A stretch of 64,000 bases of DNA, taken from the NCBI RefSeq assembly GCF_024502345.1, contig NZ_JALDNN010000001.1. One strand, written 5' to 3'. A program made the position numbers and the translations under genes. Below the pieces are notes generated by a model. That model did not search any database and was not told where the DNA came from. It was given only the letters and a program-made list of their open reading frames with translations. The DNA comes from Escherichia coli (GTDB taxonomy: Bacteria; Pseudomonadota; Gammaproteobacteria; Enterobacterales; Enterobacteriaceae). Below, piece after piece: positions 6,736 to 51,286 of the stretch (position 1 is its first letter; the number at the start of each line of letters is the position of its first letter).

Positions 6736-6812
<77 letters not shown>

Positions 6813-6844
6813 TCACCGTACTGCTTTATTTCATTAAATTTGAT

Positions 6845-6921
<77 letters not shown>

Positions 6922-6954
6922 TCACCGTACTGCTTTACTTCATCAAATTTTAAT

Positions 6955-7031
<77 letters not shown>

Positions 7032-8424: not shown

Positions 8425-8524
8425 TGCCGGATGCGGCGTGAACGCCTTATCCGGCCCACAAATCATGCAAATCCAAAATATTGCAGGAGTTATGTAGGCC
8501 TGATAAGCGTAGCGCATCAGGCAT
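8425..8524. repeat. BIME: two inverted REP (palindromic unit) elements
   Basis: gccggatgcggcgtgaacgccttatccggcc and gtaggcctgataagcgtagcgcatcaggc match the E. coli REP consensus. Confidence 0.8.
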
Positions 8525-11516: not shown

Positions 11517-11722
11517 AAAAAAAAGCACCGCAATTAGGCGGTGCTACATTAATCACTATGGACAGACAGGGTAAATGTACAGGAAGTGAAAAAAGGTAGC
11601 TTTGCTACCATGGTCTGAATCGCAGACCAATTGCAAACACAACAACACAACATCACAACCGTAAGCCAAAAGTTCACCAGAACACGCATTCCGATAAAAC
11701 TTTTCGTTCCGGCTCAGGAAGT
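11517..11722 (-). ncRNA. gcvB: GcvB small regulatory RNA (about 206 nt)
   Basis: Minus strand reads ACTTCCTGAGCCGGAACGAAAAG...GTTGTGATGTTGTGTTGTTGTGTTTGCAATTGG... and ends in a hairpin GCACCGCCTAATTGCGGTGC plus U-run; recognised as E. coli GcvB, divergent from gcvA. Confidence 0.9.
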
Positions 11723-16950: not shown

Positions 16951-17058
16951 AATCGCTCCTGCAATATAGCCGGATAATATTGCTTATCCGGCTAACCACT
17001 CTTGCTTGTTCAGGCCCGGTAGCCGGAGCGACCGGGCATCACATCAGGGAGTAATGTA

Positions 17059-29894: not shown

Positions 29895-30259
29895 TCGACA
29901 GGGAGTCAGACAACGAAGTGAACATCAGGATGATGACACTTCTGCAGGACACACCAGGATGGTGTTTCAGGGAAAGGCTTCTGGATGAAGCGAAGAGGAT
30001 GACGCAGGACGCGTTAAAGGACACCTCCAGGATGGAGAATGAGAACCGGTCAGGATGATTCGGTGGGTCAGGAAGGCCAGGGACACTTCAGGATGAAGTA
30101 TCACATCGGGGTGGTGTGAGCAGGAAGCAATAGTTCAGGATGAACGATTGGCCGCAAGGCCAGAGGAAAAGTTGTCAAGGATGAGCAGGGAGCAACAAAA
30201 GTAGCTGGAATGCTGCGAAACGAACCGGGAGCGCTGTGAATACAGTGCTCCCTTTTTTT
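29895..30259 (+). ncRNA. csrB: CsrB regulatory RNA (CsrA-sequestering, multiple GGA motifs)
   Basis: About 365 nt with roughly 18 repeated CAGGA(U)G/AGGA motifs and a terminal hairpin GGGAGCGCTGTGAATACAGTGCTCCC plus U-run. Confidence 0.9.
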
Positions 30260-30304
30260 ATTCCTGCTATCCTTCGCGGCAGTTTTTCTTATTGAGGTTG
30301 CTTT

Positions 30305-40765: not shown

Positions 40766-43000
40766 ATGGTTGCGGTAAGAAGTGCACATATCAATAAGGC
40801 TGGTGAATTTGATCCGGAAAAATGGATCGCAAGTCTGGGTATTACCAGCCAGAAGTCGTGTGAGTGCTTAGCCGAAACCTGGGCGTATTGTCTGCAACAG
40901 ACGCAGGGGCATCCGGATGCCAGTCTGTTATTGTGGCGTGGTGTTGAGATGGTGGAGATCCTCTCGACATTAAGTATGGACATTGACACGCTGCGGGCGG
41001 CGCTGCTGTTCCCTCTGGCCGATGCCAACGTAGTCAGCGAAGATGTGCTGCGTGAGAGCGTCGGTAAGTCTGTCGTTAACCTTATTCACGGCGTGCGTGA
41101 TATGGCGGCGATCCGCCAGCTGAAAGCGACGCACACTGATTCTGTTTCCTCCGAACAGGTCGATAACGTTCGCCGGATGTTATTGGCGATGGTCGATGAT
41201 TTTCGCTGCGTGGTCATCAAACTGGCGGAGCGTATTGCTCATCTGCGCGAAGTAAAAGATGCGCCGGAAGATGAACGCGTACTGGCGGCAAAAGAGTGCA
41301 CCAATATCTACGCGCCGTTGGCGAACCGTCTTGGGATTGGGCAACTGAAATGGGAGCTGGAAGATTACTGCTTCCGTTATCTGCACCCGACCGAATACAA
41401 ACGCATCGCAAAACTGCTGCATGAACGCCGTCTCGACCGCGAACACTATATCGAAGAGTTTGTCGGTCATCTGCGCGCTGAGATGAAAGCTGAAGGCGTT
41501 AAAGCTGAAGTGTATGGCCGTCCGAAACACATCTACAGCATCTGGCGCAAAATGCAGAAAAAGAACCTCGCCTTCGATGAGCTGTTTGATGTGCGTGCGG
41601 TACGTATTGTCGCCGAGCGTTTACAGGATTGTTATGCCGCACTGGGGATAGTGCACACTCACTATCGCCACCTGCCGGATGAGTTTGACGATTATGTCGC
41701 TAACCCGAAACCAAACGGTTATCAGTCTATTCATACCGTGGTTCTGGGGCCAGGTGGCAAAACCGTTGAGATCCAAATCCGCACCAAACAGATGCATGAA
41801 GATGCAGAGTTGGGTGTTGCTGCGCACTGGAAATATAAAGAGGGCGCGGCAGCTGGCGGCGCACGTTCGGGACATGAAGACCGGATTGCCTGGCTGCGTA
41901 AACTGATTGCGTGGCAGGAAGAGATGGCTGATTCCGGCGAAATGCTCGACGAAGTACGCAGCCAGGTCTTTGACGACCGGGTGTATGTCTTTACGCCGAA
42001 AGGTGATGTCGTTGATTTGCCTGCGGGATCAACGCCGCTGGACTTCGCTTACCACATCCACAGTGATGTCGGACACCGCTGCATCGGGGCAAAAATTGGC
42101 GGGCGCATTGTGCCGTTCACCTACCAGCTGCAGATGGGCGACCAGATTGAAATTATCACCCAGAAACAGCCGAACCCCAGCCGTGACTGGTTAAACCCAA
42201 ACCTCGGTTACGTCACAACCAGCCGTGGGCGTTCGAAAATTCACGCCTGGTTCCGTAAACAGGACCGTGACAAAAACATTCTGGCTGGGCGGCAAATCCT
42301 TGACGACGAGCTGGAACATCTGGGGATCAGCCTGAAAGAAGCAGAAAAACATCTGCTGCCGCGTTACAACTTTAATGATGTCGACGAGTTGCTGGCGGCG
42401 ATTGGTGGCGGGGATATCCGTCTCAATCAGATGGTGAACTTCCTGCAATCGCAATTTAATAAGCCGAGTGCCGAAGAGCAGGACGCCGCCGCGCTGAAGC
42501 AACTTCAGCAAAAAAGCTACACGCCGCAAAACCGCAGTAAAGATAACGGTCGCGTGGTAGTCGAAGGTGTTGGCAACCTGATGCACCACATCGCGCGCTG
42601 CTGCCAGCCGATTCCTGGAGATGAGATTGTCGGCTTCATTACCCAGGGGCGCGGTATTTCAGTACACCGCGCCGATTGCGAACAACTGGCGGAACTGCGC
42701 TCCCATGCGCCAGAACGCATTGTTGACGCGGTATGGGGTGAGAGCTACTCCGCCGGATATTCGCTGGTGGTCCGCGTGGTGGCTAATGATCGTAGTGGGT
42801 TGTTACGTGATATCACGACCATTCTCGCCAACGAGAAGGTGAACGTGCTTGGCGTTGCCAGCCGTAGCGACACCAAACAGCAACTGGCGACCATCGACAT
42901 GACCATTGAGATTTACAACCTGCAAGTGCTGGGGCGCGTGCTGGGTAAACTCAACCAGGTGCCGGATGTTATCGACGCGCGTCGGTTGCACGGGAGTTAG
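40766..43000 (+). CDS. relA: GTP pyrophosphokinase RelA, (p)ppGpp synthetase I (744 aa)
   Basis: 744-aa ORF recognised as RelA. Confidence 0.95.
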   Translation: MVAVRSAHINKAGEFDPEKWIASLGITSQKSCECLAETWAYCLQQTQGHPDASLLLWRGVEMVEILSTLSMDIDTLRAALLFPLADANVVSEDVLRESVGKSVVNLIHGVRDMAAIRQLKATHTDSVSSEQVDNVRRMLLAMVDDFRCVVIKLAERIAHLREVKDAPEDERVLAAKECTNIYAPLANRLGIGQLKWELEDYCFRYLHPTEYKRIAKLLHERRLDREHYIEEFVGHLRAEMKAEGVKAEVYGRPKHIYSIWRKMQKKNLAFDELFDVRAVRIVAERLQDCYAALGIVHTHYRHLPDEFDDYVANPKPNGYQSIHTVVLGPGGKTVEIQIRTKQMHEDAELGVAAHWKYKEGAAAGGARSGHEDRIAWLRKLIAWQEEMADSGEMLDEVRSQVFDDRVYVFTPKGDVVDLPAGSTPLDFAYHIHSDVGHRCIGAKIGGRIVPFTYQLQMGDQIEIITQKQPNPSRDWLNPNLGYVTTSRGRSKIHAWFRKQDRDKNILAGRQILDDELEHLGISLKEAEKHLLPRYNFNDVDELLAAIGGGDIRLNQMVNFLQSQFNKPSAEEQDAAALKQLQQKSYTPQNRSKDNGRVVVEGVGNLMHHIARCCQPIPGDEIVGFITQGRGISVHRADCEQLAELRSHAPERIVDAVWGESYSAGYSLVVRVVANDRSGLLRDITTILANEKVNVLGVASRSDTKQQLATIDMTIEIYNLQVLGRVLGKLNQVPDVIDARRLHGS

Positions 43001-43015
43001 GCCGAAATTTGCTCG

Positions 43016-43058
43016 TATCTACAATGTAGATTGATATATACTGTATCTACATATGATA
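43016..43058 (+). promoter_or_regulatory. mazEF promoter region with alternating palindrome
   Basis: Perfect palindrome ATCTACAATGTAGAT followed by overlapping TGTATCTACAT immediately upstream of mazE. Confidence 0.65.
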
Positions 43059-43077
43059 GCGGTTTGAGGAAAGGGTT

Positions 43078-43326
43078 ATGATCCACAGTAGCGTAAAGCG
43101 TTGGGGAAATTCACCGGCGGTGCGGATCCCGGCTACGTTAATGCAGGCGCTCAATCTGAATATTGATGATGAAGTGAAGATTGACCTGGTGGATGGCAAA
43201 TTAATTATTGAGCCAGTGCGTAAAGAGCCCGTATTTACGCTTGCTGAACTGGTCAACGACATCACGCCGGAAAACCTCCACGAGAATATCGACTGGGGAG
43301 AGCCGAAAGATAAGGAAGTCTGGTAA
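43078..43326 (+). CDS. mazE: Antitoxin MazE (82 aa)
   Basis: 82-aa [30 protein letters not shown], AbrB/SpoVT-type fold. Confidence 0.95.
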
Positions 43327-43661
43327 TGGTAAGCCGATACGTACCCGATATGGGCGATCTGATTTGGGTTGATTTTGACCCGACAAAAGGTAGCGAGCAA
43401 GCTGGACATCGTCCAGCTGTTGTCCTGAGTCCTTTCATGTACAACAACAAAACAGGTATGTGTCTGTGTGTTCCTTATACAACGCAATCAAAAGGATATC
43501 CGTTCGAAGTTGTTTTATCCGGTCAGGAACGTGATGGCGTAGCGTTAGCTGATCAGGTAAAAAGTATCGCCTGGCGGGCAAGAGGAGCAACGAAGAAAGG
43601 AACAGTTGCCCCAGAGGAATTACAACTCATTAAAGCCAAAATTAACGTACTGATTGGGTAG
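43326..43661 (+). CDS. mazF: Toxin MazF, ACA-specific mRNA interferase (111 aa)
   Basis: 111-aa ORF overlapping the mazE stop; recognised as MazF. Confidence 0.95.
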   Translation: MVSRYVPDMGDLIWVDFDPTKGSEQAGHRPAVVLSPFMYNNKTGMCLCVPYTTQSKGYPFEVVLSGQERDGVALADQVKSIAWRARGATKKGTVAPEELQLIKAKINVLIG

Positions 43662-43731
43662 TGTTACTAACTCACTTCTATTCTGGTCACAGGTTTCCAC
43701 CTGATAGACCCGCAATTTTCAGGACAATTCA

Positions 43732-44523
43732 ATGAATCAAATCGACCGTTTGCTCACTATTATGCAGCGCCTGCGCGATCCGGAAAACGGCTGCCCGTGG
43801 GATAAAGAGCAGACATTTGCCACCATTGCGCCTTACACCCTTGAAGAAACCTACGAAGTGCTGGACGCCATCGCCCGTGAAGATTTTGACGATCTTCGCG
43901 GTGAACTGGGCGATCTGCTATTCCAGGTGGTGTTTTACGCGCAAATGGCTCAGGAAGAAGGGCGCTTTGACTTTAATGATATTTGCGCTGCTATTAGCGA
44001 TAAATTAGAGCGTCGCCATCCGCATGTTTTTGCTGATAGTTCTGCCGAAAACAGTAGTGAAGTGCTTGCCCGTTGGGAGCAAATCAAAACCGAAGAGCGC
44101 GCGCAGAAAGCGCAGCATTCGGCGCTGGACGATATTCCTCGTAGTTTACCGGCTTTAATGCGTGCGCAAAAAATCCAGAAACGTTGCGCCAACGTTGGCT
44201 TCGATTGGACGACGCTTGGTCCGGTAGTCGATAAAGTCTACGAAGAGATCGACGAGGTGATGTACGAAGCGCGGCAGGCTGTTGTCGACCAGGCTAAACT
44301 GGAGGAGGAAATGGGGGACCTGCTGTTTGCCACGGTCAATCTGGCTCGTCATTTAGGGACAAAAGCGGAAATCGCATTGCAAAAAGCGAACGAAAAATTT
44401 GAGCGTCGTTTTCGCGAAGTGGAGCGTATTGTTGCCGCGCGTGGACTGGAAATGACAGGTGTTGACCTCGAAACAATGGAAGAAGTCTGGCAACAGGTAA
44501 AACGGCAGGAAATTGATCTCTAA
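43732..44523 (+). CDS. mazG: Nucleoside triphosphate pyrophosphohydrolase MazG (263 aa)
   Basis: 263-aa ORF with tandem MazG domains. Confidence 0.92.
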   Translation: MNQIDRLLTIMQRLRDPENGCPWDKEQTFATIAPYTLEETYEVLDAIAREDFDDLRGELGDLLFQVVFYAQMAQEEGRFDFNDICAAISDKLERRHPHVFADSSAENSSEVLARWEQIKTEERAQKAQHSALDDIPRSLPALMRAQKIQKRCANVGFDWTTLGPVVDKVYEEIDEVMYEARQAVVDQAKLEEEMGDLLFATVNLARHLGTKAEIALQKANEKFERRFREVERIVAARGLEMTGVDLETMEEVWQQVKRQEIDL

Positions 44524-50009: not shown

Positions 50010-50832
50010 GTGTTCCCCGCGCCAGCGGGGATAAACCGCGCGATTTGTTAGCGCCCGTTGCGCCTGGTGGGTGTTCCCCGCGCCAGCGGGGATAAACCGC
50101 GCGAGTTCGTGCGCATGGGGCGCATTTTTGGCGTGTTCCCCGCGCCAGCGGGGATAAACCGCGGCGTTCATGCCCTCCAGCACTGTTACGCGGGTGTTCC
50201 CCGCGCCAGCGGGGATAAACCGTAGTCAAGCGGTAATTCATCGCCTGCAGATCCGAGTTCCCCGCGCCAGCGGGGATAAACCGGCTAATTTACGTAATTT
50301 ACGTGCTATTGCACTGAGTTCCCCGCGCCAGCGGGGATAAACCGTGGGTCATGCCGGTGATCGCCTGCCCGTCGTGGAGTTCCCCGCGCCAGCGGGGATA
50401 AACCATCACCACCGCTTGTCATAAAATTAGCGTCATAGAGTTCCCCGCGCCAGCGGGGATAAACCGGGGAGTGGCACTTCTGGGGTAGCGGCGGCCCTGA
50501 GTTCCCCGCGCCAGCGGGGATAAACCGTCAACGCGCTCAGACGTTGCGTGAGTGAACCAGAGTTCCCCGCGCCAGCGGGGATAAACCGAAATATCCAGGG
50601 CTGGGCTGGAGGCAGACGGCGAGTTCCCCGCGCCAGCGGGGATAAACCGGCGTTGATGTTCTTGCGGGTGTTGCAAATATTGAGTTCCCCGCGCCAGCGG
50701 GGATAAACCGTTTCAGCAGTTCAGCGTAACACCGACGGTCACGAGTTCCCCGCGCCAGCGGGGATAAACCGCCCGGAATGCATTCTGAAGGTTTGCTGTA
50801 TATGAGTTCCCCGCGCCAGCGGGGATAAACCA
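50010..50832 (+). CRISPR. Type I-E CRISPR array: 14 repeats of 29 bp, 13 spacers (32-33 bp)
   Basis: Repeat GAGTTCCCCGCGCCAGCGGGGATAAACCG at strict 61-62 bp periodicity from 50010 to 50804; the first 3 repeats carry a GTG variant, and repeats 7 and 14 end in A. Confidence 0.97.
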
Positions 50833-51286
50833 CCATATAACCCGTTATCTCTTTCTCAAGTTTTTATATTAGCAGTACTTGTAATAAGCAACATATCCAC
50901 GTAACACCTCATGTTCAAAATAGTTCTCCATGCCAGAGAGGTTCACAATTATCGATACAAAAAATTAAATTTAATCAAAGTGTTATTTGTATGACTCTTA
51001 AATCGTTAAGAAATTTTAATCTATTATTTTTTTAATATTGAATTAATGCCTGTTAATTTTTTCTTTAGAATAACAGTATATTTTTTAAGCTTGTTATTCA
51101 TTGGTTAAGTAATAAATCTGGAAGTTTGTCTTTGTTTTGAGGCTAATGAGTGGTTTTACATAACCGCCTCTATACGCTGTTGATGAATAGTTCTTATGAA
51201 TAAAGATATCCAGTTCATACTTTAAGTGAAAATTGATAAAGTGCGATTCGTATTGTCTTTAATTCTAAAGACATCGAGTGTAGTTA

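Follow-up and report, generated by a model that had tools for sequence, protein, structure and literature searches.

An intact mazEF toxin-antitoxin module with its alternating-palindrome operator and a Tyr-51 MazF allele at the relA/mazG site of an Escherichia coli chromosome

The locus considered here, which lies within a 64,000-nucleotide stretch of Escherichia coli DNA (the window), raises three questions: whether the overlapping gene pair found between relA and mazG is the mazEF module with its self-repressing operator, whether it belongs functionally with the genes on either side, and whether it departs from the version on which the published work was done. An earlier note on this DNA had singled out positions 43016-43661, an interval that starts one base before the main palindrome and runs to the final base of the mazF stop, as overlapping mazE and mazF genes placed between relA and mazG. 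We found that both frames are open (43078-43326 and 43326-43661) and that they overlap by one base, because the mazF ATG uses the A at 43326 of the mazE TAA stop (TAATG). The genes do lie between relA (40766-43000) and mazG (43732-44523), and a search for disrupted mazE or mazF frames, which the note had named as grounds for rejecting its assignment, found both to be intact. The features of the locus are listed in Table 1.

Table 1. Features of the mazEF locus and its surroundings, in window coordinates
Feature	Position	Strand	Basis
relA (GTP diphosphokinase, 744 aa), upstream neighbour	40766..43000	+	ORF; Pfam HD_4, RelA_SpoT, TGS, ACT; annotated relA in matching genomes
mazEF cassette extent relative to mazEF-less E. 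coli	43002..43690	.	alignment with O169:H41 F6326-C1
mazEF 'cab' operator/promoter region, three MazE-dimer binding sites	43012..43060	.	published oligonucleotide CTCGTATCTACAATGTAGATTGATATATACTGTATCTACATATGATAGCG (PMC4333400); same as K-12
Core palindrome ATCTACA-A-TGTAGAT, inside published site 'c' (43015-43033)	43017..43031	.	repeat search; ITC in PMC4333400; cross-genus conservation
ATATAT palindrome, centre of published site 'a' (43031-43044)	43034..43039	.	repeat search; PMC4333400
Third arm ATCTACAT, complement of 43024-43031, inside published site 'b' (43036-43054)	43045..43052	.	repeat search; PMC3879964
Purine-rich putative ribosome-binding region GAGGAAAGGG, 5' of mazE ATG	43066..43075	+	inferred from sequence
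mazE, antitoxin and autorepressor, 82 aa	43078..43326	+	ORF; PF04014; NF007312; PDB 1MVF; K-12 identity
mazF, ACA-specific endoribonuclease toxin, 111 aa, Y51 allele (WP_000254745.1)	43326..43661	+	ORF; PF02452; NF007386; PDB
MazF codon 51 TAT (Tyr; K-12 TGT, Cys), SNP 43477 G>A, directly 5' of T52 codon ACA (43479-43481)	43476..43478	+	K-12/PDB/allele comparison
mazF-mazG spacer	43662..43731	+	sequence; K-12/divergent-allele comparison
mazG (NTP pyrophosphohydrolase, 263 aa), downstream neighbour	43732..44523	+	ORF; PF03819; NF007113; K-12 identity

The protein products were assigned from domain and family models. MazE matched Pfam PF04014 (MazE_antitoxin) at 3.5e-14 and the NCBIfam MazE equivalog NF007312 at 196 bits (cut-off 113), MazF matched PF02452 (PemK_toxin) at 1.1e-23 and the MazF equivalog NF007386 at 226 bits (cut-off 120), and MazG matched PF03819 at 1.6e-39 and the MazG equivalog NF007113 at 370 bits (cut-off 208), while the RelA frame upstream carries the complete Pfam domain set of that protein (HD_4, RelA_SpoT, TGS and ACT). 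All 82 residues of MazE are identical to those in the structures PDB 1MVF (chain 1MVF_D) and 1UB4, and 110 of the 111 residues of MazF to those in 3NFC, 5CK9 and 1UB4. When a 746-bp query covering the locus was searched against 5426 complete E. coli genomes, 4499 matched, and in 4415 of these the match covered 80% or more of the query; all matches were chromosomal, with identities of at least 97.7%, and in these 4415 genomes the same genes carry the NCBI RefSeq (PGAP) labels relA, mazE, mazF and mazG. The locus thus shows the gene order and overlap, the AbrB/SpoVT antitoxin domain, the PemK/MazF toxin fold, the key residues and the operator of an E. coli chpA-type MazEF. We conclude, with a high degree of confidence, that 43016-43661 is the canonical chromosomal mazEF (chpA) type II toxin-antitoxin module of E. 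coli, intact and at its usual relA/mazG site.

Neither the identity of this module nor that of its self-repressing operator is new, as it is among the most intensively studied loci of E. coli. The role of chromosomal mazEF is disputed nevertheless, with programmed death, stasis, defence against RNA phage and a selfish element all having been put forward (PMC1626106, PMC7167474, PMC12151602). Modest protection against RNA phage has been reported for mazEF (PMC12151602); the defence-system models of PADLOC-DB v2 gave no match to MazE, MazF or MazG. On a larger scale, a 25-kb piece of the window is 98.6-98.8% identical to the best-matching E. coli genome; much of the divergence of that piece probably lies in CRISPR spacers, in an array near 50 kb, and the rest is collinear.

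We then consider the DNA upstream of mazE, where the earlier note had described a perfect palindrome overlapped by a second inverted repeat and had judged the arrangement consistent with an autoregulatory operator. Both repeats are present. The first, ATCTACAATGTAGAT at 43017-43031, has perfect 7-nt arms (ATCTACA, 43017-43023, and TGTAGAT, 43025-43031) on either side of a single unpaired A at 43024; in the second, ATGTAGAT (43024-43031) is 100% complementary over 8 nt to ATCTACAT (43045-43052), which follows 13 nt later. The right arm of the first palindrome is therefore also the left arm of the second repeat, so that the central arm can pair either upstream or downstream. There is also a 9-nt direct repeat, GTATCTACA, with copies at 43015-43023 and 43043-43051. 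The 15-bp palindrome, the second inverted repeat and the direct repeat together are the published 'alternating palindrome' (Marianovsky et al., 2001, via PMC3879964), in which, according to the same summary, the downstream arm b overlaps the strong promoter P2 and P3 is 13 bp away; both promoters are also described in PMC1626106.

The operator interpretation of the earlier note is upheld by an exact match: positions 43012-43060 correspond base for base to the 'cab' oligonucleotide CTCGTATCTACAATGTAGATTGATATATACTGTATCTACATATGATAGCG, on which three MazE dimers were reported to bind (Zorzini et al., 2015; PMC4333400). In that study isothermal titration calorimetry (ITC) gave single-site dissociation constants for MazE of 0.6 uM at site c, 2.1 uM at site b and about 5.6 uM at site a, and MazF was found to strengthen the affinity of MazE for the operator near a 1:1 ratio and to lower it when in excess. 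It should be noted that the labels a, b and c denote palindrome arms in PMC3879964 and three oligonucleotides in PMC4333400. Because the cab oligonucleotide matches this DNA exactly, the first palindrome can be placed as the core of site c, the site of highest affinity. The whole relA-mazE spacer is unchanged relative to K-12, and among the divergent E. coli alleles sampled the leader varies at 43008, 43010, 43012, 43032, 43058 and 43060, with the repeat arms invariant. A scan for consensus sigma-70 promoters recovered no canonical promoter over the operator. It gave two weak matches, at 43053-43082 and 43181-43208, where chance predicts 1.2; neither is credible as the mazEF promoter.

Repeats that stand directly 3' of the relA stop codon, a plausible place for a terminator, could instead act at the level of RNA, as a relA terminator, an attenuator or a leader structure, or they could have arisen by chance rather than forming a protein operator. 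A lone 7-nt inverted repeat is indeed common by chance and unremarkable here, since the window holds 282 7-mers that have a reverse-complement partner no more than 30 nt downstream, as against 141 in simulations. However, 7-mers partnered on both sides within 30 nt are confined to 8 positions (6 loci) of the 64 kb, where 100 dinucleotide-matched simulations averaged 0.30 and never exceeded 2, so the three-arm arrangement would be expected 0.3 times in a stretch of this length. An RNA role fares no better. No hairpin can form from a 7-bp stem and a loop of 1 nt, and the 77-nt relA-mazE spacer folds at -14.1 kcal/mol, which is no better than shuffled sequence (z = -0.37). No terminator-like site was detected on the + strand between relA, mazEF and mazG, and no Rfam family matched within 42900-43800. 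Moreover, the same palindrome is found upstream of mazE homologues that do not adjoin relA (see below), and the binding of MazE was measured on exactly this DNA sequence (PMC4333400). The unremarkable folding of the spacer and the lack of a + strand terminator-like site fit a protein-binding role at the DNA level and the reported co-transcription. We conclude that reading these repeats as an RNA element or a product of chance is effectively refuted, and we give it next to no credence.

We also looked at homologues of the module in ten other genera, where it is found in unrelated and often mobile contexts. The Pseudescherichia MazF homologue is beside cas3 and higBA, those of Providencia and Photorhabdus are beside ParA/ParG (accompanied by Hok and transposases in the former and by VapBC in the latter), those of Kosakonia and one Salmonella are beside IS elements or a group II intron maturase, that of Klebsiella aerogenes is beside a resolvase, and that of Thorsellia is beside other toxin-antitoxin pairs. 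Across these different genera and contexts, a palindrome centred on ACA-N-TGT was found within about 80 nt upstream of mazE at 10 of 11 loci. It is identical to ATCTACAATGTAGAT in Pseudescherichia and reads ATCAACAATGTTGAT in both Providencia and Photorhabdus, TCAACATTGTTGA in Rosenbergiella, TATACAATGTATA in Pantoea, ATACAATGTAT in Thorsellia and CTACATTGTAG in Kosakonia, with a 9-1-9 version, GTATCTACACTGTAGATAC, in Klebsiella aerogenes. It can be seen from these sequences that the arms change in concert from genus to genus (TCTACA, TCAACA or TATACA). In an alignment of 13 sequences, 80% of symmetric positions are complementary, compared with 16-52% when the register is slid, changes on both sides of the arms occupy 9 cells against 4.3 expected, and the covariation score, at 0.211 against 0.096, was matched by none of 500 shuffles; these numbers overstate the case, because the sites were picked by searching for palindromes and G-T was counted as a pair. 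The three-arm design also recurs with concerted changes, since the arm variant of Photorhabdus and Rosenbergiella, GTATCAACAT, occurs once or twice more farther downstream.

By contrast with the ACA-N-TGT palindrome, the ATATAT of site a is absent from the compared loci of other genera. That an upstream repeat motif accompanies AbrB-linked MazF modules had already been reported (PMC3879964). The evidence is compatible with the 7-1-7 ACA-N-TGT palindrome of site c being the element that has been kept across genera, rather than the ATATAT of site a, from which the sole structural model of MazE with DNA was built. This pattern of conservation points to site c, which has the highest affinity in the published calorimetry, as the probable ancestral recognition element of MazE.

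The second question concerns the neighbours. The earlier note had proposed that the position of the module links the stringent response, toxin activity and NTP pyrophosphohydrolase activity in one transcriptional neighbourhood. In its strongest form this would make relA, mazEF and mazG one functional unit, with the toxin-antitoxin pair a selected part of a stringent-response circuit, and it agrees with the lack of a detected terminator between the three and with reports of co-transcription, of ppGpp-dependent repression of mazEF and of MazG lowering ppGpp and delaying death (PMC1626106, PMC7167474). However, most of the cassette is present in 4415 of the 5426 complete E. coli genomes, leaving about 19% that lack it. 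In one of these, E. coli O169:H41 F6326-C1, mazG follows relA after 95 nt with no mazEF. The alignment of this genome with the window breaks off directly behind the relA stop (43001) and picks up again at about 43691, so that approximately 690 bp, comprising the operator, mazE and mazF, are replaced by about 50 nt. The relA-mazG spacer of F6326-C1 folds strongly in place of mazEF, with a 12-bp hairpin and a second hairpin (-33.2 kcal/mol, z = -6.1). In addition, the homologues at 65-83% identity are never beside relA. A 2020 review, which also noted genomes without mazEF, concluded likewise that mazEF has no functional link to the flanking cistrons (PMC7167474). We therefore consider a single functional unit unlikely. 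Because of the empty-site genomes and the scattered contexts of the homologues, the link between stringent response, toxin and MazG is positional and transcriptional but not demonstrably functional; of the proposal in the earlier note, co-location and co-transcription stand and the functional connection does not (about 19% cassette-free genomes; PMC7167474). We conclude that mazEF is an accessory cassette whose adjacency to relA and mazG reflects its site of insertion, and that the empty sites and scattered homologues support the relA-mazEF-mazG arrangement as an accident of insertion rather than a designed circuit.

The third question was whether the module differs from the studied version. 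Within 43016-43661 a single base departs from K-12: 43477 G>A, which replaces Cys with Tyr at residue 51 of MazF, beside the catalytic T52; the earlier note made no mention of it. Of the 4379 complete E. coli genomes matching the segment, 1009, including O26:H11 11368, contain the exact 57-mer centred on this SNP, so that Y51 MazF is carried by roughly a quarter of mazF-bearing complete E. coli genomes, among them O26:H11 and O121 Shiga-toxin strains. The Y51 and C51 sequences are each present on at least 1000 contigs. The Y51 protein is RefSeq WP_000254745.1 and is the same in E. coli E2865 and CAU16175. The substitution lies on the same synonymous-variant background as K-12, and C51 is found in the more divergent E. 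coli alleles (O157:H7, EC17CM2, ExPEC XM and MRSN346595). Since all of the more divergent alleles have Cys, Y51 is derived within E. coli.

We also compared 125 full-length homologues. E24, R29, C48, P50, T52 and T53 are nearly invariant among them and all are present in the window MazF; column 51 is the sole variable position in the strongly conserved segment 48-53, with C in 76 sequences, M in 14, Y, L and T in 8 each, V in 7 and I in 4. The integrity of the catalytic residues, which the earlier note had suggested checking by alignment, is thereby established for R29, T52 and E24, of which R29 and T52 are reported to touch the scissile site of the E. coli enzyme (PMC10864209) and E24 is the residue altered in the inactive E24A mutant used in PMC5888573. 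Every homologue with Tyr-51 belongs to the E. coli type, and the 125 give no case of Tyr having arisen separately in another genus. One MazF of 77% identity that also has Tyr in this column (P0045) was considered as an independent case and rejected as coming from an error-rich assembly of E. coli type: its contig has the rlmD-relA-mazEF-mazG-pyrG-eno context with relA and pyrG fragmented, and because this is the same synteny with broken genes, we do not regard it as a separate lineage.

As C51Y is a very common natural allele and the column varies among homologues, it is probably a benign polymorphism, tolerated at a permissive position. It might alternatively leave mazEF structurally intact and yet attenuate or alter the toxin, by reducing MazF activity or by changing substrate handling or the interaction with MazE, in which case the toxin-antitoxin pair of the Y51 lineage would be weakened or in decay. 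The location of residue 51 gives this some substance, as it adjoins T52, which together with R29 makes the contacts to the scissile phosphate, and a small residue is replaced by a bulky aromatic one; Y51 is, furthermore, derived within E. coli where the divergent alleles all have Cys, Tyr at this position is confined to E. coli-type sequences, and no paper mentioning C51Y (or Cys51) was found in the searchable literature. Against this, Y51 is fixed in at least 1009 complete genomes and both ORFs are intact, column 51 accepts M, L, V, I and T, and no change is seen at the neighbouring C48, P50, T52 and T53. The MazE of both Y51 genomes that we inspected, E2865 and CAU16175, is identical to that of K-12, which argues against a dead toxin, because an intact MazE would be unexpected if the antitoxin were free to decay. 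An attenuated toxin is therefore, in our judgement, very unlikely, and a tolerated substitution remains the preferred reading. It is also unlikely that Y51 MazF is a functionally distinct natural allele in which the large tyrosine, packed against T52, alters the cleavage rate, flanking-base preference or neutralisation by MazE, although conclusions drawn from the C51 protein of K-12 would in that case not be transferable to Y51 lineages. The point matters because the biochemical and structural work has been carried out nearly entirely on C51 MazF, whereas Y51 is common in nature and appears uncharacterised.

The mechanism by which the module would operate is taken from the literature on sequences identical to those of the window; we infer the same behaviour here from the identity of the operator and of MazE, with MazF differing only by C51Y. 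The mazE and mazF genes would be co-transcribed and translationally coupled through the TAATG overlap. MazE dimers would bind the three adjacent sites of the 49-bp operator through their AbrB/SpoVT-type N-terminal domain and, since the operator overlaps the promoter, this binding would repress transcription. MazF is expected to bind the disordered tail of MazE, which would neutralise the toxin, with operator binding being stronger near a 1:1 ratio and weaker with MazF in excess. Degradation of the labile MazE by ClpAP or Lon would then release free MazF dimers, and these would cut single-stranded RNA at ACA by means of R29 and T52, their own message included.

Several of these steps can be related to the window. 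It contains two ACA triplets in mazE and nine in mazF, which are the published figures behind the cutting by MazF of its own message (PMC5888573). Ribosome-independent, ACA-specific cleavage of single-stranded RNA is predicted for the window MazF from its 99% identity to the characterised enzyme, and MazE, being the K-12 protein, would likewise be labile to ClpAP and Lon with the toxin stable; the lability of MazE and its degradation by ClpAP and Lon are described in PMC10864209 and PMC1626106. Also on record is aMEF, an antisense RNA whose non-canonical promoter lies within mazF (PMC8749433); our promoter scan found no promoter-like sites on the - strand.

Of the named systems, the closest is mazEF (chpA; chpAI/chpAK) of E. 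coli K-12 MG1655, with which the window shares the gene order, the 1-base overlap, the operator, MazE and MazG, and 110 of 111 residues of MazF. Over the 3057 bases compared there are 13 SNPs between the two, among them the one behind MazF C51Y (43477 G>A). E. coli O26:H11 11368, E2865 and CAU16175 carry the MazF allele WP_000254745.1, identical in protein to that of the window with Y51 included, and the window and E2865 show 2 differences in 2746 bases. In the mazF-mazG spacer, the window has T at 43705 where all compared genomes have C, and T was found at this position in none of the 4499 locus-bearing complete E. coli genomes.

The pemIK/parD (kis-kid) systems of plasmids R100/R1 and the E. 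coli chpB (chpS-chpBK) system have the same PemK/MazF toxin fold and an AbrB-type antitoxin, and like mazEF they are autoregulated through palindromic operators (PMC3879964). They are, however, different, paralogous systems: Kid is distant from the window MazF (E 9e-9), and the window proteins score far below the cut-offs of the ChpB and ChpS equivalogs (55 against 129 and 35 against 101, respectively). Among other Enterobacterales, the MazF proteins of Pseudescherichia, Kosakonia, Klebsiella aerogenes, Pantoea, Salmonella, Providencia, Photorhabdus, Rosenbergiella and Thorsellia are 65-83% identical to that of the window. These homologous modules resemble it in having mazE and mazF adjacent or overlapping by 1 nt and an ACA-N-TGT-centred palindrome upstream of mazE, to which Photorhabdus and Rosenbergiella, like E. 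coli, add a further downstream arm; they differ from it in their genomic contexts, in having arms with TCAACA or TATACA in place of TCTACA, and in having no ATATAT site a.

In E. coli O169:H41 strain F6326-C1, relA and mazG are separated by a spacer of only 95 nt that contains no mazEF (positions 2448-2542 of L007, the locus extracted from this genome). This spacer folds very strongly, forming hairpins of 12 bp and 9 bp with a folding energy of -33.2 kcal/mol (z = -6.1). The folded relA-mazG element is replaced by the mazEF cassette, rather than the cassette simply inserting alongside it.

In the window, the spacer between mazF and mazG carries a T at position 43705, at which K-12, E2865 and four divergent alleles have C. 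None of the 4499 complete E. coli genomes with the locus matched the 746-bp query spanning mazEF at 100%, and because of this the T at 43705 appears to be private to the source strain or its lineage.

Altered forms of the module were also encountered. The annotation of strain ExPEC XM gives mazE (189-436 of its locus, L005) a frameshift: one base is missing at the equivalent of window position 43299, which changes the last residues of MazE and leaves mazF intact. Either the missing base is a sequencing error, or this strain can live with an antitoxin whose tail is impaired. A 193-aa ORF with both MazE and PemK domains (P0021), present in one NCBI genome, is an apparent MazE-MazF fusion, which presumably arose when the TAATG junction was altered.

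When the 7-mer arrangement of the mazEF operator was sought across the window, with reverse-complement partners within 30 nt on both sides, five further places were found (3108, 16987, 49478, 49689 and 54505), those at 16987 and 54505 looking like hairpin terminators or REP-type elements. Other features of the window are listed in the table below, with Rfam matches counted at the gathering score. The best complete E. coli genome showed an identity of only 98.6-98.8% to a 25-kb piece of the window, and strain-specific CRISPR spacers are probably a large share of the cause.

RNA genes and CRISPR elements located in the window
Feature	Window position	Strand	Details
Three tandem tRNA genes	6739-7031	-	Rfam; identical
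ES036 sRNA	8459-8501	+	Rfam
GcvB sRNA	11517-11722	-	Rfam, 199 bits
CsrB sRNA	29903-30262	+	Rfam, 380 bits
CRISPR array	50012-50856		Between queE and ygcE; 29-nt repeat, GTTCCCCGCGCCAGCGGGGATAAACCG type; period 61 nt; ~14 repeats
Small degenerate CRISPR remnant	51338 to about 51450		Two repeats; ~500 bp beyond main array

In other genera, close mazEF homologues adjoin ParA/ParG partition genes in Providencia and Photorhabdus, with Hok as a further neighbour in the former and VapBC in the latter, and the homologues of Pseudescherichia and Thorsellia adjoin other toxin-antitoxin pairs (HigBA, YoeB/YefM). The surroundings of mazEF in all four genera look like toxin-antitoxin or plasmid-derived islands.
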